DNA of 64,000 bases from Thermoanaerobaculia bacterium (GTDB taxonomy: Bacteria; Acidobacteriota; Thermoanaerobaculia; Multivoradales; SZUA-115). The stretch is from positions 14,715 through 78,714 of the forward strand of contig JBIOXV010000172.1 in assembly GCA_044869805.1 (NCBI GenBank), in the 5' to 3' direction. The notes beneath the pieces are model-generated. The model worked only from the letters and a program-made list of their open reading frames with translations. It searched no databases and was not told the origin of the DNA. Made by a program: the position numbers and the translations under genes. Position 1 is the first letter of the stretch. The number at the start of each line of letters is the position of its first letter. This document shows, one piece after another, positions 25,940 through 61,308 of this stretch.

Positions 25940-25999
25940 AGGCGAGCCCCGGCGAGACGAGCGCAAAGGATACTACGGTGCCCGGAGTCACCCCGGCAC

Positions 26000-26005
26000 T
26001 ACAAT
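26000..26005 (+). promoter_or_regulatory. -10-like hexamer 8 nt upstream of the selD-fusion ATG (possible leaderless transcript)
   Basis: TACAAT at 26000-26005, then cgccgccg, then the ATG at 26014. No SD is visible. Confidence 0.25.
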
Positions 26006-26013
26006 CGCCGCCG

Positions 26014-41682: not shown

Positions 41683-42815
41683 GCCTGGCGATCCACGAGC
41701 TGCAGCGCAAGAAGCGCATCACCACCAAGGCGGTCGACGACTTCCTGGCCAAGAACGCCTTCCCGCTGGTCGAGGGGCCGAGCGTGACCTTCGTCTATCG
41801 CGGCAAGGCGGACGCCGTGCTGCTCCAGCACTTCATCTACGGGCTGCCCACCTCGCGGCCCTTCAAGCGCATCGACGGCGCCGACCTCTGGTACCTGGTG
41901 ATGGAGCTCCCCGCCAACTCGCGGGTGGAGTACAAGCTGAACGTGGTGAACGGCAAGGATCACCACTGGATCCGCGATCCTTTAAACCCGGTCACCGCCC
42001 GCGACCCGTTCGGCGCCAACTCGGTGGTTCACTCCGCGGGGCACGTGCAGCCGGATTGGACGCTCTTCGACCCGGAGGCCCGCCCCGGCACGATCGAGGA
42101 GCGCGAGATCAAGAGCGAGGCCTTCAAGCGTACCCACGGCTACCGGCTCTACCTGCCGGCACGCTTCAGGACTACCCGGCGCTACCCGCTCCTCGTCCTC
42201 CACGACGGCGACGACTACCTGCGCTTCGCCTCCCTCCAGACGGTGCTCGACAACCTGATCCACCGCATGGAGGTGGCGCCGATCATCGTCGCGCTGATCT
42301 CTTCGCGCGAGCGCCTGACCGAGTACGCGGACGACCCGCGCCACGCGCGCTTCGTGGCCGAGGAGCTGCTGCCCCAGCTCGACCGTACCCTGCCCCTGGA
42401 GCCCTCCCCGGCGGCCCGCGGCCTCGCCGGAGCGAGCTTCGGCGCCGTGGCGTCGCTGGCCACCGCCTGGCGCTACTCCGGGCGCTTCGGCAGGCTGCTC
42501 CTGCAGTCGGGCTCCTTCGCCTTCACCGACATCGGCCACCACAAGCGGGGCCCGGCCTTCGACCCGGTGGTCAAGTTCGTCAACGCCTTCCGCGATCAGC
42601 CGGGGCGGCCGACGGAGAAGGTCTTCGTCTCCTGCGGCACCTACGAGTCGCTGATCTACGAGAACCGCTCGCTCGTCCCGCTGCTGCAGGCCACCGGCAT
42701 GGAGGTCCGCTACGTGGAGGCGCGCGACGGCCACAACTGGGAGAACTGGCGCGACCGCCTGCGCGAGGGCCTCTCGTGGCTGTTCCCCGGGCCACTGTGG
42801 ATGGTGTATGAGTAG
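41679..42815 (+). CDS. Esterase (PF00756/enterochelin-esterase-like) with an N-terminal E-set/CBM48-like beta domain
   Basis: The ATG overlaps the upstream stop (ATGA). The N-domain reads VTFVYRGKADAVLLQ...WYLVMELPANSRVEYKLNVVNG. The hydrolase part contains YPLLVLHDGDDY, GLAGASFGA (GxSxG) and ARDGHNWENW. Confidence 0.8.
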   Translation: MSLAIHELQRKKRITTKAVDDFLAKNAFPLVEGPSVTFVYRGKADAVLLQHFIYGLPTSRPFKRIDGADLWYLVMELPANSRVEYKLNVVNGKDHHWIRDPLNPVTARDPFGANSVVHSAGHVQPDWTLFDPEARPGTIEEREIKSEAFKRTHGYRLYLPARFRTTRRYPLLVLHDGDDYLRFASLQTVLDNLIHRMEVAPIIVALISSRERLTEYADDPRHARFVAEELLPQLDRTLPLEPSPAARGLAGASFGAVASLATAWRYSGRFGRLLLQSGSFAFTDIGHHKRGPAFDPVVKFVNAFRDQPGRPTEKVFVSCGTYESLIYENRSLVPLLQATGMEVRYVEARDGHNWENWRDRLREGLSWLFPGPLWMVYE

Positions 42816-42840: not shown

Positions 42841-44112
42841 ATGGCCACCGTCACCAAGAAGATCGGGCTCTCCCTGGGCGCAGACCTCTGCTGGCCCCTG
42901 TGCTACGAGGAGATCGTCAAGCAGCTCGAGCTGGCGGTGCCGATCGACGGGCACACGGTCGGCGTCGAAGTCGAACGGGTCACTATCGAGCCCTTCAACC
43001 TGCGCCAGCCGGTGAAGTACGACTTGGTGCTCGATCGGCTCACCCACTGGTACCACACCAGCCGCGAGTGGATCAAAAAAGCGGTGCTGATGAACGACCT
43101 CTACGTGCTCAACAACCCGTGGGCCATCCAGTCTATGGAGAAGCACACCACCTACTGCGCCATGATGCGCCTCGGCTTCCCGATCCCCGAGACCTGGATG
43201 CTGCCGCCCAAGGAGTACGAGCCCTCCGACGACCTGCAGGTCACGCTCGAGCGCTACGCGCGGCTCTTCAGCCTGTCCTCGATCGGCGACGAGGTCGGAT
43301 ACCCGATGTTCATGAAGCCGTTCGACGGCGGCGCCTGGAAGGGGGTGCAGCGCATCGAGGACGCCGCCGCCCTGCGCGCGGCCTACGAAGGCAGCGGCAA
43401 GAACATCATGCACCTGCAGAAGGCGGTGGAGGGCTTCGACCTCTTCGTGCGCGGCATCGGCATCGGGCCGCAGGTGCGCTGCGTGCGTTACAACCCGTCG
43501 GCGCCGCTCCATGCGCGCTACGAGGTGGCCTTCAACTTCCTGACCGGCGAGGAGGCCTCCTACCTGCGCGACCAGACGCTGACCATCAACACCTTCTTCG
43601 GCTGGGACTTCAACTCCTGCGAGTCGCTGCGCCAGGGCGGGGTCTTCTACCCTATCGACTTCGCCAACGCCTGCCCCGACTCGCAGGTGACCTCGCTGCA
43701 CTTCCATTTCCCTTGGCTGGTCAAGGCGCAGGTGCGCTGGAGCCTGTTCTGCGCCCTGACCGATCGCAAGATGCGCAAGAACCTGGACTGGGAGCCGTAC
43801 TACCTGATCGCCGACCGCGACGACCTCTCCTTCCGAGAGAAGCTCGCCGCCTACGCCCAGATCGCCGACCAGCGCCTGGACACCGAGCGCTTCCAGGACT
43901 TCTGCAACCGCAATTTGGCGCACCTCGACGAGGTGTCGTGGGAGTTCTTCGGCACCGGCACCGCCAAGGAGGCAGTGCGCAGCAAGGTGGCCGCCCTCTT
44001 CCCGGAGCACGAGATCGAAGAGTTCACCGAGCACTTCTGGGGCCTGATCCAGTTCTGGCGCAAGACCGAGTCCGACCGCATCGGCACGGGGCGAGGGGAG
44101 GAGACGGCGTAG
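42841..44112 (+). CDS. ATP-grasp fold protein, divergent type B (423 aa)
   Basis: It contains VGYPMFMKPFDGGAWKGVQRI, IMHLQKAVEGFDLFVRGIGIG and YPIDFANACP. It is not alignable by eye with paralogs A, C or D outside the core motifs. Confidence 0.75.
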   Translation: MATVTKKIGLSLGADLCWPLCYEEIVKQLELAVPIDGHTVGVEVERVTIEPFNLRQPVKYDLVLDRLTHWYHTSREWIKKAVLMNDLYVLNNPWAIQSMEKHTTYCAMMRLGFPIPETWMLPPKEYEPSDDLQVTLERYARLFSLSSIGDEVGYPMFMKPFDGGAWKGVQRIEDAAALRAAYEGSGKNIMHLQKAVEGFDLFVRGIGIGPQVRCVRYNPSAPLHARYEVAFNFLTGEEASYLRDQTLTINTFFGWDFNSCESLRQGGVFYPIDFANACPDSQVTSLHFHFPWLVKAQVRWSLFCALTDRKMRKNLDWEPYYLIADRDDLSFREKLAAYAQIADQRLDTERFQDFCNRNLAHLDEVSWEFFGTGTAKEAVRSKVAALFPEHEIEEFTEHFWGLIQFWRKTESDRIGTGRGEETA

Positions 44113-44167
44113 GTCGACCTTTCCAAGCTCGCCCGCCTTCGCACTCTGCGACTGGAGACACTTGCCT

Positions 44168-47167
44168 ATGGCCTCTCGCCGCCTGATCTGCCTCGCCTTC
44201 GCTTTCATGGCCGCCGCGGCTCGCGGTGACGACGACCTCGACGCGCGCCTCGCCGAGATCGCCGCCTGCCAGCTCGACACCGCCAAGGCGGTCACCGTCC
44301 GCGGCCTCGCGCTCAACACCGGCATGGCCACCCTCAAGGTGGACACCGGCACCTTCTTCCCCGCCAGCCCGGTGGCCGGCCGGGTGACGGAAGCGGTCTT
44401 CCTGGGCAAGGCGCGGCTGGTGCTCGATCCCCCCGACGAGATCGAGCGCGCGCAGCTCGAGATCTTCACCGGCCGGACGCGCCTCGAGGTGGAGATCTCC
44501 GAGGCCGCTTTCGTGCTCGCCAGTGACCGGGCCGCGGAAGCGGTGTTCAAGCGCTCGCCGGCCGCGGTCGAGCCGGCCCTCGCCAGCCGGGCGACGGAGC
44601 TCTTCGCCACCTGGAAGGCGAGCCCGGAGCGCAAGCAGCTCGACGTCGACGGCGCCATCCTCGCCGACAGCCTCGGCGACGCCTTCGCCCAGGGCTACTT
44701 CGCCGGCTGGTTCCAGAGCGCGGAGCTGGGCAAGTTCCTCTACCTGGTCGAGCCGAGCTCCGTCGAGCAGGTGACGCTCGGGCAGTTCGTGCCCATCGAC
44801 CTCACCAAGAAAGAGAAACGCAAGGCGGCCAAGCTGATCCACCGCGAGCAGCGGCGGGGGCGGCTGATCGGCATCGAGGTCGAGGACCTGGGGCAGTGGG
44901 ATACCTGGGTCTCGGCCTCGCTCCGCGGCGCCGCGGCCGGGCCCACGCCCGGCGATCCCGGCTTCGAGCCCGAGCGCTACGTGGTCGATCTCTCGCTCGC
45001 CGACCGCGACCTCGCGGTCAGCGGCCGGGCGCAGATCCAGCTCCGGGCCACGCTCGGCATCACCCGCATCGTGCACCTCGCCGTCCACTCCGAGCTCGAA
45101 GTGACGAAGGTGCTGGGCGAAGGCGGGGAGGCGCTGCCCTTCCGCCAGACCGGCGGCGAGGTGATGGTCGTGCTGCCGCGGGCGCCGGCGGCGGGAGAGA
45201 CCGCCGTCGTCGAGGCCCACTTCGACGGGGAGCTGCTGGAGAAGGTCGAGGGCGGCGTCTTCCTCCTCGCCGAGACCGTGAACTGGCACCCCCACGCCGG
45301 CGACGTCGACCGTGCCACCTACGACGTGACCTTCCACTGGCCGGGGCGCCTCGAGCTGCTGGCCGGCGGCAAGCGGGTGGGCGGCGGCGCGGAGAAGAGC
45401 GGCCGGCAATGGGAGCGGCGGTCGATCGAGCTGCCGGCCGCGGGGCTCGGCTTCGAGGTCGGCAAGTTCCATCTCACGACCCGCCAGGCCGGGCACGTGG
45501 CGATCCGGCTGGGGATGATGCCTTTCGCCGGCGAGGGCCGCAAAGGAATCGAGGAACGCATCCTCGATGCCGCCAGCCGGTCCCTCACCTACTTCGAGGA
45601 GGCCTTCGGTCCCTACCCGCTCGACGAGCTGATCCTAGTGCTGACCCCGCGCCTCTACTCGCAGGCCCTGCTCGGTTTCGTCACCCTGTCGGCGGTGATG
45701 ATGGCCGAAGACAGCCTCTTGGTCTGGCTGATCGGCCTCGAGGACCCGCGCACGGTGATCGCCCACGAGGTCGCGCACCAGTGGTGGGGCCACCAGGTGG
45801 GCTGGCTGGGCTACCGCGACCAGTGGCTGTCCGAGGCGATGGCCAACTACGCGGCGGTGCTCTTCGCGCGGAACGAGCTCGGCGGCGAGCTGCGCTACGC
45901 CCGCGGCCCCACCTCCGACTGGCAGGCGGCGCTGCTCGAGGAGACCGCGGACGGCCGGCCCATCGAGTCGCTGGGGCCGCTGGTGCTCGGGGCGCGGCTC
46001 TCCTCGAGCCGCGGCGGCGACGCCTATAGCTCGATCGTCTACCGCAAGGGGGCGGTAGTGCTCGACATGCTCGCCCGCCGCTTCGGCGAGCAGGCCTTCC
46101 TCGGCATGCTCAAGAAGACCGCCGAGGTCGCCGCCCACCGCGCCATCTCGACCGAGATCTTCCTCGACGCGCTGGAGCGGCAGTCCGGGGTCGAGCTCGA
46201 CGGCTTCGCCGGCCAGTTCATCTACGGCACCGGCCTGCCGGAGGTGTACTACGACTACACCTTCGCCCAGGCGGAGGGCGGCAAGTGGAAGGTGACCGGC
46301 ACCGCCCGCCAGAGCGCCCCTTACCGCTTCCGGTACCGCGTGGTGGAGAGCGCCGGCGGCTTCGACGTGGGGCGCGAGCGGATCGACCTGGCGCGGGTCG
46401 CCGACTCGGCGCTGATCGTGCCGGTGCAGATCGCGCTGTACGACCCGACGAAGCAGGAGGAGAAGAAGGCGAAGCGCAGCGAGGCGCGCGCGATCGGCAA
46501 CAGTCTGCTCTCGGGCCACATCCTGCTCCGGGGCGAGTCGACGCCCCTCTCCTTCGAGCTCGACCACGAGCCCAAGGAGGTCTGGCTCGACCGCCGGGAG
46601 GAGGTGTTCGGCCGCTTCTTCAACCAGCGTCGGCATCCGAAGCGCATGCTCCTGTACCAGGCGATCGACCTCGCGGCCGCCGGCCGCCGCGAGGAGGCGC
46701 TGGCGCTCGCCGCCCAGGCCCTCGCCGCCGAGACCTTCTCCGGCCCCCGTTACGAGGACTCTCCCGGGCCCGAGGACCTCGAGGCCGAGGCGCAGTCGCT
46801 CGACGGCCAGGTGCACCTCCTGCTCGGCCGCCTCCACCTCGACGCCGGCCGCGACGCCGAGGCGCGCTCGGCGCTGGGCGCGGCGAGAGACCTCCTCGAG
46901 CCCGGCAAGCACCCGTGGCGGAAGGGGGAGATCGACCTGCTGGACGCCCGCCTGGCGCTGCACGAGAAGGACTTCGAGCGCGCCTACCGCCTGCTGCGCA
47001 AGGGGGTGGTCAAGCAGGGCACCATCGAGGGCGCCGAGGGCTCGCTGCTGCTGGCGATCGCGGCCCGCGCCACCGGCCACACCGAGGAAGCGAAGCAGGC
47101 GATCGAGGACGCCAAGCAAGGAGGCGCCGAGGTGGGGGCGCTCACCGCGGCGGCCAAGCCCCGCTGA
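44168..47167 (+). CDS. Exported M1-like gluzincin metalloprotease with a C-terminal helical/TPR-like region
   Basis: It has a signal peptide (MASRRLICLAFAFMAAAARG). It carries HEVAHQWWG-x18-E (WLSEAMANY). I see no GXMEN motif upstream of HEXXH. The helical-repeat tail is about 250 aa. Confidence 0.85.
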   Translation: MASRRLICLAFAFMAAAARGDDDLDARLAEIAACQLDTAKAVTVRGLALNTGMATLKVDTGTFFPASPVAGRVTEAVFLGKARLVLDPPDEIERAQLEIFTGRTRLEVEISEAAFVLASDRAAEAVFKRSPAAVEPALASRATELFATWKASPERKQLDVDGAILADSLGDAFAQGYFAGWFQSAELGKFLYLVEPSSVEQVTLGQFVPIDLTKKEKRKAAKLIHREQRRGRLIGIEVEDLGQWDTWVSASLRGAAAGPTPGDPGFEPERYVVDLSLADRDLAVSGRAQIQLRATLGITRIVHLAVHSELEVTKVLGEGGEALPFRQTGGEVMVVLPRAPAAGETAVVEAHFDGELLEKVEGGVFLLAETVNWHPHAGDVDRATYDVTFHWPGRLELLAGGKRVGGGAEKSGRQWERRSIELPAAGLGFEVGKFHLTTRQAGHVAIRLGMMPFAGEGRKGIEERILDAASRSLTYFEEAFGPYPLDELILVLTPRLYSQALLGFVTLSAVMMAEDSLLVWLIGLEDPRTVIAHEVAHQWWGHQVGWLGYRDQWLSEAMANYAAVLFARNELGGELRYARGPTSDWQAALLEETADGRPIESLGPLVLGARLSSSRGGDAYSSIVYRKGAVVLDMLARRFGEQAFLGMLKKTAEVAAHRAISTEIFLDALERQSGVELDGFAGQFIYGTGLPEVYYDYTFAQAEGGKWKVTGTARQSAPYRFRYRVVESAGGFDVGRERIDLARVADSALIVPVQIALYDPTKQEEKKAKRSEARAIGNSLLSGHILLRGESTPLSFELDHEPKEVWLDRREEVFGRFFNQRRHPKRMLLYQAIDLAAAGRREEALALAAQALAAETFSGPRYEDSPGPEDLEAEAQSLDGQVHLLLGRLHLDAGRDAEARSALGAARDLLEPGKHPWRKGEIDLLDARLALHEKDFERAYRLLRKGVVKQGTIEGAEGSLLLAIAARATGHTEEAKQAIEDAKQGGAEVGALTAAAKPR

Positions 47168-47528: not shown

Positions 47529-49043
47529 TCAGAAGTGCCCCGCCAGGAGCGCCTCGTACAGTGCCACGTAGCGCTCGATCTGCGACTCCCAGGAGAAGTC
47601 CCGGCTCATGCCGGCGAGCATCAATCGCCGCCAGGCCTCGCGATCCTGGTAGAGGTCGAGCGCCTGGTTCACGGCCCACGCCAGGCCCTCGGGCGTGAAG
47701 TGCTCGAATACGAAGCCGGTGCCACTGCCGTCCCCGGGGTCGAAGGGCTCCACCGTGTCGGCGAGGCCGCCGGTCTTGCGCACCACGGGCGGCGTGCCGT
47801 AGCGCTGGCTGTACATCTGGTTCAAGCCGCAGGGCTCGTAGAGCGAGGGCATGAGGAAGATATCGGCGCCCGCCTCGATCAGATGGGCCAGCGGCTCGCT
47901 GTAACCGCGGTAGAAGACCACGCGGTCGGGGAAGCCGTGCTGCAGCCCGGCGAAGAACTCCTCGTACTTGCGCTCGCCGTTGCCGAGCACCACCAGGCGG
48001 GCGTTGCGTCGCGCCAGCAGGCCCGGCAGGACCTCGAAGAACAGGTCGAAGCCCTTCTGCGCGGTGAGGCGCGACACCACGCCCAAGAGTGGCACCCGCT
48101 CCTCGGCGGCCGAGCCGGGAGCGGCGAGCCCCAGGGAGGCCAGCCCCAGAGAAGCTAGCAAATCGGCCTTGTTGGCGGCCTTGCCGGAGAGGTCGGCCGC
48201 CGAGTAGGGGTGGGGGATGTGGGGGTCGTTCGCCGGGTCCCACTCCTCGGCGTCGATGCCGTTGACGATCCCCACCAGGTGGTCGCCGCGCGCCCGCAGC
48301 ACGCCCTGGAGCCCCATGCCGTAGCGGTCGGTCTGGATCTCCAGGGCGTGGGTGCGCGACACGGTGGTGATGACCCCGGCATAGAGCAGGCCGGTCTTCA
48401 AGAAGTTGATCCGCCCGGCCGCGAGGTCGTCCTGGTAGAGGTAGGAGGCGACCCCCGCGAGCCCCAGCTCGGGCAGCAGGCCGCTGCCGAACACTCCCTG
48501 GTAGCCCACGTTGTGCAGCGTGAGCACGGTCTTGGTGCCGGCGAACAGGCGGTCCCAGGCGTAGACGGTGCGCAGGTAGAGGGGCATCAAGGCGGTGTGC
48601 CAGTCGTGCGCGTGCACGATGTCCGGTGCCCAGCCCATGCGCTGGCAGCACTCGAGCGCCGCCCGCGACAGGAAGGCGAAGCGCAGCGCCTCGTCCGCGT
48701 CCTGCGTGTAGTAGCCCTCGCGGTCGTAGAGCGCCGGGCAGTGGATGAAGTAGAGCGGCGGCCCGCCGCCGTGGGTGCCGACGCCCGGCAGCGGCGCCGT
48801 GTAGGCGGAGAAGGAGAGGTGGCGGTCGCCCACCGAGATCGGCACGTCGCGCAGGAAGGCGACCGGGAAAAACGAGTGCTGCGAGCGATCGATCTTCGAG
48901 TACAGCGGCAGGAAGGCGCGCACGTCGTGCCCGGCGCGGTCGAGGTAGCGGGCGAGCGAGGCGGCGACATCGCCCAGGCCGCCGGTCTTGGCGAACGGGG
49001 TGAGCTCGGAGCTCGCCTGGCAGATGCGCAGCGGCCGGTCCAC
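47529..49043 (-). CDS. glgA: Glycogen synthase (ADP-glucose type, GT5)
   Basis: The GTG at 49041-49043 overlaps the glgC TAG by 1 nt. It contains SSELTPFAKTGGLGDV, HAHDWH, NGID...WDP, and PSLYEPCGLNQMY plus RKTGGLADTV. Only the last 504 aa of the 1172-aa track ORF belong to this gene. Confidence 0.92.
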   Translation of the reverse strand: MDRPLRICQASSELTPFAKTGGLGDVAASLARYLDRAGHDVRAFLPLYSKIDRSQHSFFPVAFLRDVPISVGDRHLSFSAYTAPLPGVGTHGGGPPLYFIHCPALYDREGYYTQDADEALRFAFLSRAALECCQRMGWAPDIVHAHDWHTALMPLYLRTVYAWDRLFAGTKTVLTLHNVGYQGVFGSGLLPELGLAGVASYLYQDDLAAGRINFLKTGLLYAGVITTVSRTHALEIQTDRYGMGLQGVLRARGDHLVGIVNGIDAEEWDPANDPHIPHPYSAADLSGKAANKADLLASLGLASLGLAAPGSAAEERVPLLGVVSRLTAQKGFDLFFEVLPGLLARRNARLVVLGNGERKYEEFFAGLQHGFPDRVVFYRGYSEPLAHLIEAGADIFLMPSLYEPCGLNQMYSQRYGTPPVVRKTGGLADTVEPFDPGDGSGTGFVFEHFTPEGLAWAVNQALDLYQDREAWRRLMLAGMSRDFSWESQIERYVALYEALLAGHF

Positions 49044-50308
49044 TAGACCTCCGTGCCGTCCGGCACCACCGCCCCGGCCGCCACCACGATGATGCCGTCG
49101 CGGATGCACCAGTTGTCGCCGTCGGCGTGGGTCACGCCGCCCGCGTTGACCAGCTTGACGCCGTTGCCGATGCGCACGTCGCGGTCGAGGATGGCGTGCT
49201 TGATCACGCAGTCGCGGCCGATACCGAGCGGGATGTTGCTGCCCGCCGCCTCGTCGGGCTCGAAGAAGTTGGCGCCCATCACCACGCTGTCCTCGACCAC
49301 CGAGCCGGAGCGGATCACCGAGCGCACCCCGAAGATCGAGCGCTGGATCTCGGCGCCGGTGATGATCGAGCCGTCGCACAGCACCGAGTGGTAGACCCGG
49401 CACTCGTTCACCTTCACCCCGGGCAGGAAGCGCGGGTGGGTGAAGATCGGGTAGTCGGGGCTGTAGAGGTTGAGCGGCGGCACCGGCACCGCGAGCTCCA
49501 GGTTCGAGCTGTGGAAGTTGCCGATGGTGCCGATGTCGCGCCAGTAGCCGTCGTAGCCGAAGGCGTAGATCTTCCGCTCGTGGATCGCCTTGGGGATGAT
49601 CTCTTTGCCGAAGTCGTGGTCGTCGGTGCCCACCAGCAGGTCGCGCAGCAGGCCGGGGCGGAAGACGTAGATGCCCATGCTGGCGAGGAGCGCGTCCTCC
49701 TCGGTTTCGAAGCCGAGCTTCTTCAGCGTGGCGGCGTCGGTAATCAGGCGGTCGAGGACCTCCTTCTCGGTCGGCTTCTCCACGAACTCGATGATGCGGC
49801 CGGCGGAGTTGACGCGCATGATCCCCAGGCCTTTGGCCTGTGACCGGGGCACCGCCTTGACCGCCACCGTCATGTCCGCCTTCTTCTGCCGATGGGTGTC
49901 GACGAAGTTCCTCATCTCCATCAGGTAGAGCTGGTCGCCGGACAGCACCAGCACCTCGGAAGGCTGCAGCAGGAGCAGCCGGTCCAGGTTCTGGCGCACG
50001 GCGTCGGCCGTGCCCTGGTACCAGTCGCGGCGCTCGAGGCCCTGCTCGGCGGCCAGGATGTTGACGAAGCCGCGCGAGAAGACGTCGAAGCGATAGGTCT
50101 GCGCGATGTGCTGGTGCAGGCTCGCCGAGTTGAACTGGGTCAAGACGAAGATGCGGGTGATGCCGGCGTGCAGGGAGTTCGAGATCGGCACGTCGATCAG
50201 CCGAAACTTGCCCCCCACCGGCACCGCCGGCTTGGCCCGGCTCTTGGTGAGCGGCCACAGGCGCGCTCCCTGCCCACCCCCCAGGATCGCGGTGACGACG
50301 TTCCTCAT
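49043..50308 (-). CDS. glgC: Glucose-1-phosphate adenylyltransferase
   Basis: 421-aa ORF. It contains ILGGGQGARLWPLTKSRAKPAVPVGGKFRLIDVPISN and a C-terminal left-handed beta-helix. SD GAGAGGGG lies upstream. Confidence 0.95.
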   Translation of the reverse strand: MRNVVTAILGGGQGARLWPLTKSRAKPAVPVGGKFRLIDVPISNSLHAGITRIFVLTQFNSASLHQHIAQTYRFDVFSRGFVNILAAEQGLERRDWYQGTADAVRQNLDRLLLLQPSEVLVLSGDQLYLMEMRNFVDTHRQKKADMTVAVKAVPRSQAKGLGIMRVNSAGRIIEFVEKPTEKEVLDRLITDAATLKKLGFETEEDALLASMGIYVFRPGLLRDLLVGTDDHDFGKEIIPKAIHERKIYAFGYDGYWRDIGTIGNFHSSNLELAVPVPPLNLYSPDYPIFTHPRFLPGVKVNECRVYHSVLCDGSIITGAEIQRSIFGVRSVIRSGSVVEDSVVMGANFFEPDEAAGSNIPLGIGRDCVIKHAILDRDVRIGNGVKLVNAGGVTHADGDNWCIRDGIIVVAAGAVVPDGTEV

Positions 50309-50347
50309 CGGCGCCCCTCTCTTGAAGCCAAGCCTCTGAGGTGGCAG

Positions 50348-50377
50348 ATCTTACTCGCACTCGCCCGCCCGGCCCAA
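50348..50377 (-). promoter_or_regulatory. Candidate promoter for glgC-glgA
   Basis: The reverse strand reads TTGGGC (50372-50377), 18 nt, TAAGAT (50348-50353). It lies 39 nt upstream of the glgC ATG. Confidence 0.25.
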
Positions 50378-50383
50378 GGCCGC

Positions 50384-50389
50384 TATACT
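50384..50389 (+). promoter_or_regulatory. -10-like TATACT 8 nt upstream of the ATP-grasp C start (possible leaderless transcript)
   Basis: TATACT, then ccccgccc, then the GTG at 50398. No SD and no convincing -35. Confidence 0.25.
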
Positions 50390-50397
50390 CCCCGCCC

Positions 50398-51618
50398 GTG
50401 CCGCACGTCGTCTTCGTAGCGCCGTTCCTGATGCCGGCCACGGCGCGCTTCGCGCAGGCCACGGCGAGCCTGCCGGGGGTCAAGGTCGGGCTCATCACCC
50501 AGGACCCGGCGGCCAAGATCCCGCCTTCGCTCGCCGCCTCGATCGCCGCCCACCGGCGGGTGGAGAACGCTTTCGACCCGGTGCGCTTGGCCGATGCGGC
50601 CCGCGACCTCGCGCGCTCGATCGGCGGCCTCGACCGGCTGATGGGGGCCCTGGAGCAGCTCCAGGTGCCGCTCGCCCAGGCGCGCGAGATCCTGGGGGTC
50701 GAGGGCATGCGGGTAGAGGCGGCGAAGAACTTCCGCGACAAGGCGCGCATGAAGACCGTGCTGCGGGAGGCCGGCCTGCCCTGCGCCCGCCACCGGCTGG
50801 CGGCTTCCGCCGAGGAGGCGCGCGACTTCGCGCGCGAGGTCGGCCTGCCGCTGGTGGTCAAGCCCCCGGACGGCGCGGGCGCCAAGGCCACCTTCAGGGT
50901 GGGCACGCCCGAGGCGCTGGAGGAGGCCTTGAAGGTCAACGCGCCGGCGCCCGGCCGCCCGGTGCTGCTCGAGGAGTTCGTCACCGGCGACGAGTACTCT
51001 TTCGAGACCGTTTCGATCGCCGGCCGGCCGGTGTGGTACTCCTCCACCCGCTACCTGCCGACGCCGCTCGAGGCGATGCACAACCCATGGATTCAGTGGT
51101 GCGTGCTGCTGCCTCGGGAGCGCGAGGACCCGCGCTTCGACGACGTCAAGGAAGTGGCTTTCAAGGGGCTCGCGGCGCTGGGCATGGGCACCGGCCTCTC
51201 GCACATGGAGTGGTTTCGGCGCCGCGACGGCTCGCTCGCCATCTCCGAGGTCGCCGCCCGCCCTCCGGGCGCGCAGATCACCACCCTGGTTTCGGTGGCG
51301 CACGAGTTCGACTTCCTCGCCGCCTGGGCACGCCTCATGGTGTTCAGCGAGTTCCATCCGCCGCCGCGCAAGTGGGCCTCCGGCGCCGCCTTCTTCCGCG
51401 GCATGGGCGGGAGCCGCGTCAAGGCCGTGCACGGCCTCGACCAGGCGCAGAAGGAGCTGGGGCCGCTGGTGGTCGAGGCCAAGCTGCCCAAGCCCGGCGC
51501 CCCCAAGTCCGACAGCTACGAGGGCGACGGCTACGCCGTGCTGCGCCACGAGAGCACCGAGACGGTACGGAAGGCGCTGATGCGGCTGGTGGCGCTGGTG
51601 CGCGTCGAATACAACTGA
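50398..51618 (+). CDS. ATP-grasp ligase, paralog C (~406 aa)
   Basis: I chose the GTG at 50398 by alignment with the paralog N-termini (VPHVVFVAPFLMP). It contains VGLPLVVKPPDGAGAKAT, LEEFVTGDE and SHMEWF...EVAARPPG. Confidence 0.82.
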   Translation: MPHVVFVAPFLMPATARFAQATASLPGVKVGLITQDPAAKIPPSLAASIAAHRRVENAFDPVRLADAARDLARSIGGLDRLMGALEQLQVPLAQAREILGVEGMRVEAAKNFRDKARMKTVLREAGLPCARHRLAASAEEARDFAREVGLPLVVKPPDGAGAKATFRVGTPEALEEALKVNAPAPGRPVLLEEFVTGDEYSFETVSIAGRPVWYSSTRYLPTPLEAMHNPWIQWCVLLPREREDPRFDDVKEVAFKGLAALGMGTGLSHMEWFRRRDGSLAISEVAARPPGAQITTLVSVAHEFDFLAAWARLMVFSEFHPPPRKWASGAAFFRGMGGSRVKAVHGLDQAQKELGPLVVEAKLPKPGAPKSDSYEGDGYAVLRHESTETVRKALMRLVALVRVEYN

Positions 51619-51628
51619 GATCCCGTCG

Positions 51629-52846
51629 ATGAACGTGGTGATGATCGCTCCGGCCTACCCGTGGGAGATGACCCTCTTCACCCGCGGGCTGGCGCGGGTG
51701 GGCGCCAAGGTGCTCGGCGTGGGGGACACGCCGGCCGCGGGGCTGTCGCCGATGGTGAAGGAGAGCCTCGCCGCCTACCTGCACGTGCCCTCGCTGTGGG
51801 ACGAGGAGGCAGTGATCGAGGCCGTGCGCCGGCACCCGGCGGCGCGCTCGCTCGACCTCGTGGAATGCCTGTGGGAGCCGGGCATGATCCTCGCCGCCCG
51901 GCTGCGCGAGCGGCTGGGCCTGCCCGGCATGACGGTCGCCGAAACCGTTCCCTTCCGCGACAAGGGGCGAATGAAACAGGTGCTCGACGCCGCCGGCATC
52001 CGCACTCCGCGTCACTTCCGCGCCGCGTCGACCCGCGAGGTGCGCGCCGCGGCCGAACGCATCGGCTTCCCGCTGATCGTCAAGCCGATCGCCGGCGCCG
52101 GCTCCAAGGACACCCATCGGGTCGACGACGACGCGGAGCTCGAGCAGGTCATCGCCAAGGTCCGGCACGTCGAGGAGGTGAGCGTCGAGGAGTACATCGA
52201 GGGCGAGGAGCACACTTTCGACACCATCTGTGCCGACGGCGAGATCCGCTATTTCAACCTCGCCTGGTACCGGCCGCGGCCGCTGCTGCAGCGCACCGTC
52301 GAGTGGATCAGCCCGATGACCGTCACCCTGCGGGACGTGTTCCGCGACGACCTCGCACCGGGCCGAGAGATGGGCCAGGCGGTGCTCGAGGCCCTGGGAT
52401 TCAAGACCGGCTTCACCCACATGGAGTGGTTCCTGAAGCCTGACGGCGAGGCGGTGTTCGGCGAGATCGGCGCCCGCCCGCCCGGCGCGCGCTCGACCGA
52501 GCTGATGAACTACGGCTGCGACATCGACGTCTTCACCGGCTGGGCCGAGGCGGTGTGCCACCGGCGATTCAGCCAGAAGGTGGTGCGCCGCTACAACAGC
52601 GCCGTGATCTTCAAGCGCGCCCAGGGCCAGGGCCGCATCCAGCGCATCGAGGGCCTGGAGCGCCTGCTCGGCCGCTTCGGCGAGGCGATCGTCTCCGTCG
52701 ATCTCCTGCCGATCGGCTCGCCGCGCCGCAACTGGCTCCAGACCCTGCTCTCCGACGGCCACGTCATCCTCCGCCACCCGCACCTACCGACCTGCATCGA
52801 GATGGCGGACACGGTGGCCGAGGAGCTGCAGCTCTACGCTGCCTAG
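51629..52846 (+). CDS. ATP-grasp ligase, paralog D (405 aa)
   Basis: It begins MNVVMIAPAYPWE and contains IGFPLIVKPIAGAGSKDT, VEEYIEGEE and THMEWF...EIGARPPG. It starts 10 nt after paralog C. Confidence 0.85.
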   Translation: MNVVMIAPAYPWEMTLFTRGLARVGAKVLGVGDTPAAGLSPMVKESLAAYLHVPSLWDEEAVIEAVRRHPAARSLDLVECLWEPGMILAARLRERLGLPGMTVAETVPFRDKGRMKQVLDAAGIRTPRHFRAASTREVRAAAERIGFPLIVKPIAGAGSKDTHRVDDDAELEQVIAKVRHVEEVSVEEYIEGEEHTFDTICADGEIRYFNLAWYRPRPLLQRTVEWISPMTVTLRDVFRDDLAPGREMGQAVLEALGFKTGFTHMEWFLKPDGEAVFGEIGARPPGARSTELMNYGCDIDVFTGWAEAVCHRRFSQKVVRRYNSAVIFKRAQGQGRIQRIEGLERLLGRFGEAIVSVDLLPIGSPRRNWLQTLLSDGHVILRHPHLPTCIEMADTVAEELQLYAA

Positions 52847-54420
52847 CGCAGCGCCAGCCGCAGCGCTGCGACCTCCCCCGACAGCTCGTCGGCCACCGCG
52901 ACCGCGACGGCCTCGCTGTCGGCGGCGAGCACGAGCTCCGTGACGTAGCTGAGCCGGCAGGGCTCTGCCTCCATCGTGGGGCGCGTGGCGCGCAGCGCCA
53001 GGCGCTCGACCGGAGAGGCCCTGCCCCCCGGCTCCCTCACCGCCACCGCCAGCGTCAGCCGCGCCTGCTCGCCGCTCGCCGTGGTCTCGAAGCGCACGTG
53101 GTCGCAGGGCAGAGCGAAATCGAGCGGAAACGCGATCGTCCCGGTGCCGCGGGAGACGGCGGGACCGGCGACCGCGGTGAGCCGCAGCGGGTTCTCGCCA
53201 TTGCCCCGCCAGAGCGCCCCCAACGCGTGGGCAGCGGGCGAAGGGCCGGCCTCGGCGAGCGCCACCGTGGACGCGTGGCGTACTTCCAGTCGGGGCCGCG
53301 AGACCTCGACCTTGATCATCGGCGAAGCACCCTCCACGGCTGCCGGCGCCGCGAAGCGCAGCCGGTAGGTGCCGCCGAGCAGCGTCTCCAGCCGTTCCAT
53401 CGCGGCCTGCGGGTGGCCGGCGCGGAGCAGCTCGCCGCCGCTCGACCGGGCGAGCTCCGCGAGATGCGGCTCGAAGAGGGTGCGGCGCTCGAGCGATCCC
53501 GCGAGGCCGCCGCGCAGCTCTGCCGCAGCCGGCTCCACGATCCACGGAAAGAACGTCACCTGCGCCTGGCCGGCCGCGGCGAGCAAAGCAGCGAGGCGGG
53601 GCGGCACGTTTCTTCCCTGGCCCGAGGGCAGCGGCGGCTGCGACACCAGATAGCGCAGCGACGGGCTGTCCTGGGGCGACCCAGGCAACGGGGTCTCCGT
53701 TCCGCTCACCACGCGCACGCTGAAGCTCCTCGGGGCCTCGCTGGTCGAGCGCGGATCGCTGGCGTAGGGCAACCCGCCCGTCACGTAGAGGAGCGCCTTC
53801 GGGCCGGCGAGGTCACCGACCGCCTGGAGCAGGGACTCGAGCCCGTCGAGCGAGGCACGGCTGGCGCGGCGCAGGGCGTCGTCGAGGCTGGCGCGCTCTC
53901 CCAGCGCGACGGGTGCGTGGTCCGGCTGCTCGGGGCTCCGCCTTCGCCACTGCCGGTCGACCTCGACCGCGAGCGCGGTGGCCCGGCGCCCTGAGAGCTC
54001 CGCGAGCCGCAACTGGGCCGTGGAGCCGTCGCGGGCAAGCGGCGCCACCAGCTCGAGGCTGCCGTCGAAGGAGGCGAGGAGCACGCGATCGCCGCGCTGG
54101 GCGCGCGCCGAGGTGAAGCGCGCCAGCGCATCGACCAGGCCCTGAAGGCGGCCGGGGGGCAGAAGCTGGTGATCGACCAGGACGACGAAGGTCTGACTTC
54201 CGCCCGCCGGCTGCTGCAGCTCCTGGACCGGCAGCCCGGCGAGGGAGACGCGGAATTCGGCCGCCTCGAGGTCGGTCACCGGCCGGCCCTGACGGTCGAG
54301 CACCAGGGCGGCGAGCTCGACGCTCGGCAGGAAGGAGTGCGGCGCTCCCTCCTGGGCTATGGCCGCGCCCAGCCACGCGACTCCACTCAGAACGAGACCG
54401 CCGAGCCGGGATGCCTTCAC
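52843..54420 (-). CDS. VWA-domain protein of the acidobacterial VWFA-related type (TIGR03436-like)
   Basis: The GTG at 54420 overlaps the upstream TGA (GTGA). It has a signal peptide (LVLSGVAWLGAAIAQ). The N-terminal pattern is VELAALVLDRQGRPVTDLEAAEFRV...QTFVVLVDH. Confidence 0.7.
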   Translation of the reverse strand: MKASRLGGLVLSGVAWLGAAIAQEGAPHSFLPSVELAALVLDRQGRPVTDLEAAEFRVSLAGLPVQELQQPAGGSQTFVVLVDHQLLPPGRLQGLVDALARFTSARAQRGDRVLLASFDGSLELVAPLARDGSTAQLRLAELSGRRATALAVEVDRQWRRRSPEQPDHAPVALGERASLDDALRRASRASLDGLESLLQAVGDLAGPKALLYVTGGLPYASDPRSTSEAPRSFSVRVVSGTETPLPGSPQDSPSLRYLVSQPPLPSGQGRNVPPRLAALLAAAGQAQVTFFPWIVEPAAAELRGGLAGSLERRTLFEPHLAELARSSGGELLRAGHPQAAMERLETLLGGTYRLRFAAPAAVEGASPMIKVEVSRPRLEVRHASTVALAEAGPSPAAHALGALWRGNGENPLRLTAVAGPAVSRGTGTIAFPLDFALPCDHVRFETTASGEQARLTLAVAVREPGGRASPVERLALRATRPTMEAEPCRLSYVTELVLAADSEAVAVAVADELSGEVAALRLALR

Positions 54421-55046
54421 CAGCGCAAGGTTACTCCGGCCGTGGCATCGGCCTGGTAGAGGTCGCCCCCCACGCTCTGCGGCAGTCCCGTCCACCAGCC
54501 TCGCCCTTCGAAGCGCAGGCTCACGCGCTCGGTGAGCGCGACCTTGAGGCCCAGCCCCAGGCTGGCTGCAGGGTGCTCGCCCTCCGGCCAGGTGTGCAGG
54601 AAGGTGCGGCGCCCCGAGGTCGCGAGGTGCGCCAGCCCCACGGTGGCAGCGGCAAAGGGGCTGAGCCGCTCTCCGGGGCGCTGGTAGACGACCCCGACCT
54701 GGAAGTGGGTGGTGGTAAGCGTGTTTTCGTCGAACACCACCGGCTCGACCGGGAGCGTGTGCGGGTCGTCGACGAAGCCGAGGTCGCTCTCTTGCCGGCT
54801 CACCAAGGCTTCCAGGCCCCATCCGCCACGCAGCTCATGGTCGACGATGAGGCCGAAGGCGGGCCCGGAGTCCGCCGCCACGTTGATGGGGCAAGGCGCC
54901 TGGATCGAGGCGAGGCAGACGACCGACTGGGCGTAGGCGACGTCGCCGTCGCGGTAGGCGACGGAGGGAGTGATCTCGACGCCGTGCGCGGTCGTGGTGC
55001 AGAGTGAGGCGAGAAGCAGGCCGGGAAGGAAGCGGAACCAACGCAT
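54417..55046 (-). CDS. Outer-membrane beta-barrel protein (OmpW/porin-like)
   Basis: The ATG at 55046 is preceded by AAGGAG. It has a signal peptide (MRWFRFLPGLLLASLCTTTAHG), alternating beta-strand patterns and a C-terminal aromatic residue (GVTLRW). Confidence 0.7.
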   Translation of the reverse strand: MRWFRFLPGLLLASLCTTTAHGVEITPSVAYRDGDVAYAQSVVCLASIQAPCPINVAADSGPAFGLIVDHELRGGWGLEALVSRQESDLGFVDDPHTLPVEPVVFDENTLTTTHFQVGVVYQRPGERLSPFAAATVGLAHLATSGRRTFLHTWPEGEHPAASLGLGLKVALTERVSLRFEGRGWWTGLPQSVGGDLYQADATAGVTLRW

Positions 55047-57818: not shown

Positions 57819-58613
57819 TCAGGGCTCCTCGAAGACGGCGCGATACTCCTCGATCAACGACTCGCTCCCGCCGCGAACGCCCAGCAGGCGGAAGCGCAGC
57901 TCTCCCACGGCGAGGCGCTGCGGCAGGAGCAGCGAGAAGCTCCCGGACTCGCCCGGCTCGACGGCACCCTGCCACAGGGGCTTGCCCGACCTTTCCTCGA
58001 CCGAGAGACGATAGGAGGTGAAGGCCTGGGCGTCGGCGGGCGGCGTGAGCAGGACGGTGACCCAGCGGGCCGCGCGGGGCAGGGAGACGCTCTGCGGCCC
58101 CTCCTCGCCCCGTGGGCGGAAGCTCCCGGGGTAGAGGTCGACGACCGCCGCACCCGCCTGCGGCTCGAACGCCGCACGCAGCCGCGAATTCTCGGAGGCG
58201 AGCGAGAAGGCCCACAGGCCTAGCCCCGCGGCAGCCAGGAAGAGCGCGGCTACAAGGCTCGGCACGAGCCTGTTCGCGAGCTGTCGCCGAGATCCCGGAA
58301 GCGAAGCCGGGGAAGGCGCGGCCGGCGGGAAGGCGCGGGCCACCACGGCGTCGACCGCGGCCGCCAGCGCCTCCGGCTCGAGGTCCACATCCGGCTGAGC
58401 GTCGGCGGCGAGCGCGCGCAGCTCGAGCGCCCGGTCCGTGCACTCGCGGCAGGCGGCGAGGTGGGCCTCGATCTGGTCCCGCTCCGCCGCCGCCAGCTCG
58501 GCCTGGGCGAAGGCTCCGAGCGCAGCGGGCGAGGGATGCTGCTCGGAGCCCTCGGCGAGGAGGGCGAAGGCCTGGTAGAGCTCTGCCTCGGAAAGTGGAT
58601 CTCGCTCGTTCAC
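57819..58613 (-). CDS. Anti-sigma factor (zf-HC2 type, single-pass membrane protein)
   Basis: 264-aa ORF with HLAACRECTD (HxxxCxxC) and a TM segment (LVPSLVAALFLAAAGLGLWAF). The periplasmic domain is about 125 aa. It starts 4 nt after the sigma gene stop. Confidence 0.8.
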   Translation of the reverse strand: MNERDPLSEAELYQAFALLAEGSEQHPSPAALGAFAQAELAAAERDQIEAHLAACRECTDRALELRALAADAQPDVDLEPEALAAAVDAVVARAFPPAAPSPASLPGSRRQLANRLVPSLVAALFLAAAGLGLWAFSLASENSRLRAAFEPQAGAAVVDLYPGSFRPRGEEGPQSVSLPRAARWVTVLLTPPADAQAFTSYRLSVEERSGKPLWQGAVEPGESGSFSLLLPQRLAVGELRFRLLGVRGGSESLIEEYRAVFEEP

Positions 58614-58617
58614 GGCC

Positions 58618-59268
58618 TCATCCTTCGCCTCTTCGGTCCTCGCCGGCGAGCTCGGCCTCGAGCCGCTTCCGCGCCTGGTACAGGTGCGCCTTCACGGTAT
58701 CCACGGTCAGCCCCATGAGGACCGCGATCTCGCCGTAGCTCCTCTCCTGGTACACCCGCAGCGCAAGGCAGGTGCGCATCCGCGCCGGCAGGCGCTCGAT
58801 CGCCTGCCGCAGCCGCTCCCGCCGTTCCTTGGCGAGCGCCTGGCGCAGCGGGTCGTCCGCGAGCGGTGCCCGAGCCACCTCCGCCAAGGCCGATCCCTCC
58901 GGCAGATCCACCATGGCCGTCTCGCCCTGGCGTTTGTGCGCGCGTACGCGGCGCACCGCCTTGCGCAGCACGTTGGCCGCGATCTCGAACAGCCAGGGCT
59001 CGAAGCGCGTGGCCTGGCGGACCTCCGCCAACCCTCTTACGATCCCGAGGAACGTCTGCTGGGTTAGATCGCGCGCCTCCTCGTCGGCGAGGCCCCGCCG
59101 CACGAAGTAGCGGTGCACCGGGCGGTAGTAGGCCTCGACTAAGCGCCGGAAGCTCGCTTCGCGGTCGCTCCCCCGCCGCCACGCGGCGACCAGCCGATCG
59201 ATCTCCTCGCGCTCCAAGCGCCGCCAGTCTATTGCTCTGCCGTGACCGGTCTCTGCAAGTGACCCCAA
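58618..59268 (-). CDS. ECF (sigma-70 family) RNA polymerase sigma factor 1
   Basis: Region 2 reads FRRLVEAYYRPVHRYFVRRGLADEEARDLTQQTFL. Region 4 reads SYGEIAVLMGLTVDTVKAHLYQARKRL. There is no ATG. Candidate TTG starts are at 59268 and 59217, so the start is uncertain. Confidence 0.75.
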   Translation of the reverse strand: MGSLAETGHGRAIDWRRLEREEIDRLVAAWRRGSDREASFRRLVEAYYRPVHRYFVRRGLADEEARDLTQQTFLGIVRGLAEVRQATRFEPWLFEIAANVLRKAVRRVRAHKRQGETAMVDLPEGSALAEVARAPLADDPLRQALAKERRERLRQAIERLPARMRTCLALRVYQERSYGEIAVLMGLTVDTVKAHLYQARKRLEAELAGEDRRGEG

Positions 59269-59274
59269 CGCTCC

Positions 59275-59288
59275 CGCGCCCTGGCGCG
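59275..59288. promoter_or_regulatory. Palindrome CGCGCC-CT-GGCGCG centred between the two divergent ECF sigma genes
   Basis: Perfect 6+6 inverted repeat at 59275-59288. It could be an operator, or a chance event in GC-rich DNA. Confidence 0.2.
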
Positions 59289-59299
59289 TCTTAGAGAGC

Positions 59300-59878
59300 G
59301 TGGAACGAACGGTGGTGCTGGGAGAGCTGACGCTGCGACCGATCGAGGCAGAGGAAGCGGGCGAACGGTTGGAGCGGCTCTTCGACGCCCACCACCAACG
59401 CCTGTTTCGCCTGGCGCGGCGGCTCAGCTCGGACGCCGAGGAGGCCCGCGACCTGGTACAGGAGACCTTCCTGCGCGCGGCGCGGCGGCCGGCGGCGGTC
59501 CCCGAGGGCGAGAGTGGCGGCGAGGCCTGGCTGGTGCGCGTACTGGTCAACCTCTGCCGCGATCGTTACCGGCGCCGCTCCGTGCGCCAGGAGTCGCGGC
59601 CCGCCCTGGCGGTGCCGAGTGCCGTCCAGGACCCGGCGGAGGCGGCCGTGGCCAGGGCGTCGGTGACCGCGGCGCTGGCGCGGCTTCCGGCGCGGCGGCG
59701 GGCCGTGGTGGTGCTCGCCGAGCTCGAGGAGCTGCCGAACGTGGAGGTGGCGCGGCTCCTGGGGATGGCCAAGGTCACCGTGCGCTGGCATCTCGCCGCC
59801 GCGCGCAAGCAGCTCGCCGTGATCCTGCGGCCGGTGCTGAAGGCGCCCGGTGCTCGCATCGAGGAGGTGGAACCATGA
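59300..59878 (+). CDS. ECF (sigma-70 family) RNA polymerase sigma factor 2
   Basis: Region 2 reads LFDAHHQRLFRLARRLSSDAEEARDLVQETFL. Region 4 reads LPNVEVARLLGMAKVTVRWHLAAARKQL. The start is a GTG at 59300; an in-frame TTG further downstream with GAGGAAG upstream is an alternative. Confidence 0.78.
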   Translation: MERTVVLGELTLRPIEAEEAGERLERLFDAHHQRLFRLARRLSSDAEEARDLVQETFLRAARRPAAVPEGESGGEAWLVRVLVNLCRDRYRRRSVRQESRPALAVPSAVQDPAEAAVARASVTAALARLPARRRAVVVLAELEELPNVEVARLLGMAKVTVRWHLAAARKQLAVILRPVLKAPGARIEEVEP

Positions 59879-60465
59879 GCTCGAACCGCAAGCCCGAGAC
59901 GGACCTGACCCGGCTGCTGCGGCGGGGAGACCCGGCCTTGGAAGGCGAAAGTCTGCCGCCCACCGACGTGGCGCGGATGCGCCGCAGCATGCTCGCCGCG
60001 ATCGAGGCGGCGGTCAGGCCACCCTTGCTCCCCTGGCGGCCGGTACTCGCCGCGGCCGGCAGCGTGGCCCTCGTCTTCGCCTTGGGGGTCGCCTGGTGGA
60101 GGCTCGGACCGCCGGCCGGATCGAGAGAAGAGAAGCTGGCCGTCGTAGTCGGCGTACCAGAACCGCCTGGCCAGATGCTTCCCGCCGAGCCGGCAGGCGC
60201 CAGCCGCGGAACCGCGGCGGCGCAGCAGCAGCTCACCCGCAGTGCACCAGCTCCAGGCGCCATCACCCCTGCGTCGCGGCCGGCTCGCAAGCCGCGGCCC
60301 GCTCGGCCGGGTCCCGCTGCCCCGCGGGCGGCGCCGGCCTCCCCGGCGGGGGCCGCGGTCCATGCCGCACGCCAGGTCGAGTTCGAAACCCCGGGCGGGA
60401 CCCGTGTCGTCTGGGTCCTCGACCCTTACTTCTCTCTCCACCCAACGGAGGTTCAAACCCGATGA
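59875..60465 (+). CDS. Single-pass membrane protein, candidate non-canonical anti-sigma factor
   Basis: The ATG overlaps the sigma-2 stop (ATGA) and is preceded by GAGGAGG. It has a TM segment (VLAAAGSVALVFALGVAWW) and a Pro/Ala-rich periplasmic region. No zf-HC2 Cys/His motif. Confidence 0.65.
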   Translation: MSSNRKPETDLTRLLRRGDPALEGESLPPTDVARMRRSMLAAIEAAVRPPLLPWRPVLAAAGSVALVFALGVAWWRLGPPAGSREEKLAVVVGVPEPPGQMLPAEPAGASRGTAAAQQQLTRSAPAPGAITPASRPARKPRPARPGPAAPRAAPASPAGAAVHAARQVEFETPGGTRVVWVLDPYFSLHPTEVQTR

Positions 60466-61238: not shown

Positions 61239-61308
61239 GGAGCATGTGCGGCGTGGCCCGCGCGGGCGCTACCCAGCCGTGGGGTAGTCTTCGCGCGGAC
61301 CGCCGACC

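Follow-up and report, generated by a model that had tools for sequence, protein, structure and literature searches.

Gene organization of the locus

The window analysed here is a stretch of 64,000 nucleotides (nt) from a Thermoanaerobaculia bacterium of the Acidobacteriota (contig JBIOXV010000172.1). It contains three related genes, here named A, C, and D, which encode ATP-grasp enzymes resembling the L-amino-acid ligases (LAL). These genes are located among glycogen genes, together with a fourth ATP-grasp protein (B), a peptidase S51-like protein, and an esterase. Because the G+C content of the window is about 70%, genes were called from third-position G+C and then checked against families. 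The features, with protein lengths in amino acids (aa), are as follows.

38035-39471, minus strand: GH57 and DUF3536 alpha-glucan enzyme (Pfam PF03065 and PF12055)
39468-40688, minus strand: paralog A, LAL-like ATP-grasp enzyme, 406 aa (Pfam PF02222, above cut-off)
40732-41682, plus strand: S51-like (peptidase E / cyanophycinase-like) protein, 316 aa, divergent from A (Pfam Peptidase_S51, below cut-off)
41679-42815, plus strand: PF00756 esterase with an enterochelin-esterase-like N-terminal domain, 378 aa (Pfam Esterase, 2.5e-23, and Enterochelin_N)
42841-44112, plus strand: B, divergent ATP-grasp-fold protein with a C-terminal helical domain, 423 aa (by fold)
44162-47167, plus strand: M1 peptidase with a TPR tail and an apparent signal peptide
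47529-49031, minus strand: glgA, glycogen synthase, GT5, ADP-glucose type (TIGR02095)
49043-50308, minus strand: glgC, ADP-glucose pyrophosphorylase, divergent from C and D (Pfam NTP_transferase and LbH_GLGC)
50309-50397: divergent intergenic region of 89 nt, common to glgC and the C-D pair (by coordinates)
50398-51618, plus strand: paralog C, LAL-like ATP-grasp enzyme, 406 aa, GTG start (Pfam PF02222)
51629-52846, plus strand: paralog D, LAL-like ATP-grasp enzyme, 405 aa (Pfam ATP-grasp model)
61288-62901: malQ, 4-alpha-glucanotransferase, GH77, about 8 kb downstream of D

In the window, D begins 10 nt after C, whose GTG start is consistent with where its orthologs begin. A ends in a 4-nt overlap of its stop codon with the GTG at which the GH57 gene starts (GTGA, 39468-39471; read from the sequence), which suggests that the two genes are translationally coupled here. 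In most other genomes, the partner of A is glgA rather than the GH57 gene. The glgA assignment was supported by a TIGR02095 score of 515 bits (cut-off 328), and its translation contains the KTGGLGDV and RKTGGLADTV motifs. A public protein collection contains exact sequences for the products of A, B, D, the S51-like gene, and the esterase gene. No Rfam families were detected in the window, and the intergenic stretches near the genes span only 10-89 nt. A small carrier-protein or precursor-peptide gene within the cluster was considered and rejected, as the gaps are too small by their coordinates.

Relationship and integrity of the three paralogs

Full-length BLASTP comparison gave 32% identity for A and C (E-value 2e-59), 36% for A and D (4e-77), and 34% for C and D (4e-57); a tblastn search identified exactly three family copies in the window. 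The initial annotation had described three ATP-grasp copies of 406, 406, and 405 aa with matching blocks, and all of the motifs it quoted are present and aligned. The similarity extends over the full length and is not confined to the generic ATP-grasp motifs. It far exceeds them, as the nearest solved ATP-grasp enzyme is about 20% identical.

A set of 173 full-length A-, C-, and D-like proteins was collected from 81 loci. The mean identity within groups is 0.65 for A, 0.57 for C, and 0.61 for D (minima 0.46-0.54), whereas the mean identity between groups is 0.32-0.35, with a maximum of 0.40. The nearest neighbour of every one of the 173 sequences falls inside its own group. A, C, and D each form their own conserved orthologous group. 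Each window copy shares 51-68% identity with its orthologs from other phyla, as compared to 32-36% among the three copies themselves. Since identity is high within groups and low between them, with no nearest neighbour across groups, the triplication is judged from the sequences to be older than the spread across the host phyla.

Analysis of the 173 sequences showed 35 columns that are conserved at 95% or more with an identical residue in all three groups, including K152, E189, H266, E268, E280, R284, and G287 (A numbering). Residue roles were assigned from the alignment to the structure of the L-amino-acid ligase BL00235 (3VOT) and from general knowledge of the fold: K152 is the ATP-binding Lys, E189 is the hinge Glu, and the remaining positions belong to the H266-x-E268 and E280-x-x-x-R284-P-P-G287 motifs. 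All three proteins have the three-domain ATP-grasp fold, and K152, G158, E189, E268, E280, and R284 are at least 95% conserved in each group; beside the Lys and the hinge Glu, these stand for the Gly-rich loop, the two acidic residues assigned to Mg binding, and the Arg assigned to catalysis. The Lys, the hinge Glu, the His-x-Glu, and the Glu-x-x-x-Arg-Pro-Pro-Gly are retained across the 173 orthologs. None of the three copies looks like a pseudo-enzyme, a possibility that the initial annotation had kept in view.

A, C, and D reach the Pfam ATP-grasp models, and the specific NCBIfam families all score far below their curated cut-offs. The closest solved relatives by sequence are BL00235 (3VOT, 1.7e-20), followed by RizA (4WD3) and BacD (3VMM); these three L-amino-acid ligases are also the top structure matches. 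The L-amino-acid-ligase family models are not reached. LAL_C2 (PF18603) gave 18.6 bits for A against a cut-off of 29.4, and a search with the same model found no match for C or D. The BacD equivalog NF053745 gave 27-32 bits against a cut-off of 850. Because the identity to the L-amino-acid ligases is only 18-22%, A, C, and D are best placed by sequence as an uncharacterised clade nearest to these ligases and outside the described families.

After the invariant Glu83 comes a loop whose fixed sequence is particular to each group, namely TVEAH in A, LEQLQ in C, and LWEPGM in D. The Glu-Pro of the D loop aligns with Glu84-Pro85 of BL00235 (HMMER alignment to 3VOT). Pro85 of BL00235 is reported to be a specificity-determining pocket residue, comparable to Trp332 of BacD (review, PMC6920838). 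RPPG is followed by Val in A and by Ala in the other two groups. In all three groups a Trp immediately follows the Mg-binding Glu (HMEWF), which is not the case in BL00235 or RizA. The group-specific residues are compatible with distinct substrates, without proving them. The proposal of distinct substrate specificities or sequential ligation steps in the initial annotation is plausible, and is partly supported by the loop residues.

Recurring gene set and its link to glycogen synthase

Two samples of fetched loci (labelled with L numbers) were used for the analysis of gene neighbourhoods. The D-anchored sample contains 47 genome loci with at least 8 kb on either side of D, which were searched with the window proteins by tblastn. 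The A-anchored sample contains 70 metagenome loci with sequence upstream of A, and served as an independent test. Near D, C was found in 34 of the 47 loci, A in 23, and glgA in 22; the S51-like protein, the esterase, and B were each found in 18, and all three together in 17. The set recurs in other phyla, where each gene is of its own ortholog type. In the A-anchored sample, 57 of 70 loci have glgA immediately upstream of A in the same orientation, with gaps usually below 50 nt, and 4 further loci have it divergent from A. The recurring set consists of A, C, D, B, the S51-like hydrolase, one or two PF00756 esterases, and glgA, and it spans at least five bacterial phyla.

All eight genes lie within about 11 kb in 8 of the A-anchored loci. 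A frequent complete order is C, S51-like, esterase, B, and second esterase, with D on the opposite strand, and glgA followed by A. The window layout, with glgC and glgA leading away from C and D on the opposite strand, recurs in other genomes. The S51-like gene is conserved beside the esterase and B in other loci. In the Steroidobacteraceae-type loci, glgC, malQ, and (in L060 only) glgB are found within a few kb of the set. Membership is kept between phyla despite the shuffled gene order, a pattern typical of functionally coupled genes.

These results bear on one alternative, namely that the copies are recent redundant duplicates or decaying pseudo-enzymes in an accidental glycogen neighbourhood. 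Their equal lengths and common motifs might suggest so. However, each copy is closer to its orthologs in other phyla (51-68%) than to the other copies (32-36%), the catalytic residues are intact in all three, and several phyla show the association with glycogen genes under gene orders that differ from one another. By our own estimate, chance would place a single-copy gene within 10 kb in far fewer than 1% of genomes. This explanation is already contradicted by the orthologous groups, the residues, and the glgA link, and its probability is negligible.

Relatives of these proteins are widely distributed. D and B each have more than 7000 database relatives, and the closest 120 listed for each are 65-92% identical (leaving aside the exact entry of D itself); for D, the top relatives reach 65-91%. 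A genome scan with D identified more than 500 species carrying a relative. The best 80 of these belong to the Acidobacteriota/Thermoanaerobaculia (closest, 91%), the Planctomycetota, the Steroidobacteraceae and other Gammaproteobacteria, the Dormibacterota, Nannocystis, and Sulfidibacter. A profile search of 1.84 billion representative proteins gave 893 clusters at an E-value of 1e-30 or lower. Some distant relatives (P0377, P0385, P0388, and P0372) are 810-1020 aa long and consist of two fused ligase modules, each with a LAL_C2 domain. Rosetta-stone fusions were also searched as a clue to the substrate, but the long relatives were only double ligases and one contig artefact with a UDP-glucose dehydrogenase fragment, and none pointed to a substrate. 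Some Thermoanaerobaculia (L052-L055 and L076) carry a D-C-D triplet, in which two D-type genes surround one C-type gene and no A-type gene is nearby. The bins labelled Saccharimonadales (L075) and Mycobacteriales (L062) may be wrong; L075 agrees with the Dormibacterota loci both in the order of its genes and in the identities of their orthologs.

The arrangement of C and D raises the possibility that A, C, and D are subunits of one hetero-oligomer, such as a C-D heterodimer, which catalyzes a single reaction with some copies being structural or regulatory. In most genomes C and D lie one behind the other, separated by 2-30 nt, and at least one locus has the two gene calls overlapping by 4 nt. 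Fused double ligases occur among the related proteins, and the structurally related PurK and PurT are dimers. However, all three proteins have complete sets of catalytic residues, which is unusual for scaffold subunits, and the specificity-loop residues differ between groups. Moreover, C heads a different operon from D in many lineages, and D or A may occur without C nearby. An obligate three-subunit complex is disfavoured by the D-only loci of Nannocystis and Sulfidibacter and by the loci without C. A single hetero-oligomeric enzyme is regarded as unlikely.

Of the companion hydrolases, the S51-like protein matched Peptidase_S51 with an E-value of 2.7e-4 and 21.1 bits, below the Pfam cut-off of 23.9. 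In an alignment with peptidase E DR_1070, its GGH and AWSAGAM (Ser) motifs fall on those of the oxyanion and the nucleophile. The Ser motif is nearly invariant among the orthologs, and the window protein retains the aligned His. One Planctomycetota ortholog has Ala in place of the putative nucleophile Ser. Since this Ser is replaced, or the His absent, in some orthologs, the S51-like protein may not be a conventional peptidase.

The S51 family is that of cyanophycinase and peptidase E. The separate ATP-grasp modules might thus make a poly(amino acid) reserve analogous to cyanophycin, co-deposited with glycogen, with the S51-like protein as the depolymerase. This would fit the conserved Ser motif, the co-located storage-polymer genes, and the weak matches of the ligases to the ATP-grasp segment of cyanophycin synthetase. 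These matches are far under the cut-offs (36-47 versus 850-877 bits), however, and there is no Mur-ligase-like domain as in cyanophycin synthetase. The esterases would have no role in such a polymer, and the closest known relatives produce dipeptides (PMC6920838). A reserve of this kind appears quite improbable.

The nearest solved structures to the 378-aa esterase are Fes, an enterochelin esterase (2.7e-15), and ferulic acid esterases. No signal peptide was seen in this protein. A glycogen-binding domain in its N-terminus was considered and rejected, as the match to the starch-binding CBM_20 was not significant (E-value 0.029). A second PF00756 esterase of about 240 aa, with a GASIGA nucleophile motif, follows B closely in 22 genome loci anchored on D and in many metagenome loci anchored on A (for example, L023:6460-7170 and L107:5492-6211). 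It is absent from the window; the window and L004 have an apparently secreted M1 peptidase at that position.

B matches no Pfam family, and contains an extra C-terminal helical domain of about 125 aa. Its profile-to-PDB sequence matches cover the ATP-binding strand only. Compared with the RimK, LysX-ArgX, ITPK1, and synapsin group, B resembles RimK in fold only, and membership of the RimK family was rejected (TIGR00768, rimK_fam, 25 bits versus a cut-off of 143). Fold and family comparison agree with the initial annotation that B is a separate ATP-grasp lineage. Ester-forming ATP-grasp enzymes, such as the D-Ala-D-lactate ligases and graspetide ligases, are known, and both are among the fold matches of B.

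A further possibility is that the ligases act on the glucan itself. One ligase could form an ester between a hydroxyl of glycogen and an amino acid or other carboxylate, the others could lengthen this substituent, and the esterases and the S51-like protein would strip the resulting aminoacyl- or peptidyl-glucan. The same-strand, tiny-gap coupling of glgA to A is the tightest link of the set (57 of 70 loci), and A is coupled to the GH57 gene in the window. The two PF00756 esterases are conserved, and their nearest solved relatives include ferulic acid esterases, which cut esters on polysaccharides. The ester-forming enzymes among the fold matches of B and the clade-specific active-site Trp (HMEWF), missing from BL00235 and RizA, would also be compatible. 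However, there is no direct evidence of modified glycogen, and the CBM_20 match is not significant. D is also found without glycogen genes nearby, the Dormibacterota loci have no glgA within 10 kb, and the linkage could be explained by co-regulation alone. Action on the glucan is considered unlikely.

Some neighbours in the window fall outside the set. The M1 peptidase was not counted as a member because it has an apparent signal peptide and follows B only in the closest relative, L004, among the fetched loci; the other match, in L023, is distant (24%) and non-syntenic. The gene at 52843-54822 on the minus strand encodes a protein of 659 aa, in which an Acidobacteria-type VWA domain scores below cut-off. 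It is convergent with D and overlaps it by 4 nt at the 3' ends, and is not conserved beside D elsewhere. Downstream of D, malQ is a further glycogen gene of the region, closely preceded by a tRNA-Gly(CCC) gene (60311-60403). Two genes for ECF-type sigma factors (57819-59878) are close together on opposite strands, beside a gene for a putative zf-HC2 anti-sigma factor. A single open reading frame at 25942-28326 on the plus strand contains both pyridine nucleotide-disulphide oxidoreductase and AIR-synthase-related (selenophosphate-synthetase-like) domains.

Proposed pathway and comparison with known enzymes

The observed paralogy, catalytic residues, orthologous groups, fold, recurring set, and glgA link point to A, C, and D as distinct ligation steps in one cytoplasmic pathway, which would include B and the hydrolases and be tied to alpha-glucan storage. 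This explanation is rated slightly better than even (probability about 0.55). The three enzymes would have diverged before the host phyla separated and been retained as three distinct enzymes. Each might activate a carboxylate as an acyl-phosphate, by analogy with the closest relatives, and join it to a different amine or hydroxyl partner. B would be a fourth, very divergent ATP-grasp protein in the same pathway, while the S51-like enzyme and one or two PF00756 esterases might trim or turn over the product, perhaps a small peptide-like solute or a nitrogen-containing reserve. Given the genetic tie of the pathway to glycogen synthesis, the cell probably makes, stores, or uses this product along with alpha-glucan. 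The fused double-ligase relatives would also fit this explanation.

Several observations weigh against the proposed pathway. All of the curated family cut-offs are missed by a wide margin, and 'amino-acid ligase' is therefore only the nearest analogy. The trio is not always together within 10 kb, because D stands alone in the Nannocystis and Sulfidibacter loci and some Gammaproteobacteria loci lack C. Several S51-like orthologs do not have the aligned catalytic His, among them those of the Dormibacterota (for example, L020:17874-18773 and L042:6641-7483). A plain-peptide product would leave two esterases hard to account for. Finally, no substrate, product, or activity was found in the literature for any family member.

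The strong constraint across phyla (65-92% identity among the closest relatives listed) suggests an important, conserved role for the system, and the almost constant coupling of one copy to glgA points to a so far undescribed branch of metabolism, for storage or stress. The bacteria that carry the set live in soil, sediment, and wastewater, where they are abundant but poorly represented in culture. A more specific, and rather speculative, proposal is that a covalent amino-acid or peptide decoration is put on glycogen and taken off again by the four ATP-grasp enzymes and the esterases, or that these build a new nitrogen-containing reserve that is co-deposited with it. If true, bacterial storage chemistry of a new type would exist in the Acidobacteriota, Planctomycetota, Dormibacterota, Steroidobacteraceae, and their relatives. 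Three new specificities would also be useful biocatalysts, because L-amino-acid ligases serve in ATP-driven peptide synthesis.

In the public databases, the D orthologs are systematically mis-annotated as 'GAR transformylase', which the present analysis flags; other names are 'hypothetical' and 'ATP-grasp domain-containing'. For PurT, C and D scored 31-44 bits against cut-offs of 339-502, and A scored 34 on NF006766. For PurK, the scores were 30-37 bits against a cut-off of 318. With family scores of 30-44 bits against 318-502, and no purine genes in the context, a PurT or PurK identity was rejected, and annotation of this type is almost certainly a mis-transfer.

Cyanophycin synthetase and cyanophycinase offer a parallel, in which an ATP-grasp ligase is combined with an S51-family hydrolase around the theme of a storage polymer. 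However, A, C, and D have the ATP-grasp fold only, and lack both the N domain and the Mur-ligase-like domain of cyanophycin synthetase. An identity with this enzyme was rejected on the latter ground and on scores of 36-47 bits for TIGR02068 and NF010623, against cut-offs of 850-877.

The L-amino-acid ligases BL00235, RizA, and BacD-YwfE are the nearest known enzymes. The characterised members produce dipeptides rather than polymers (PMC6920838). Like these enzymes, A, C, and D have a three-domain ATP-grasp fold of about 400 aa, with a KP...G-x-G loop, an EE(F/Y)I hinge, and an H-x-E motif, and the E-x-(G/A)-x-R-x-x-G motif replaces the E-x-N of the D-Ala-D-Ala ligases. Unlike them, they share only about 18-22% identity with the known members, and LAL_C2 is not above its cut-off. 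The kind of enzyme is known; a conserved set of several ligases and hydrolases tied to glycogen synthase is new, and a literature search found nothing on this cluster. The known L-amino-acid ligases are single genes of antibiotic or dipeptide pathways in few taxa, whereas A, C, and D are three ancient paralogs, which are retained together with hydrolases and glgA across phyla.

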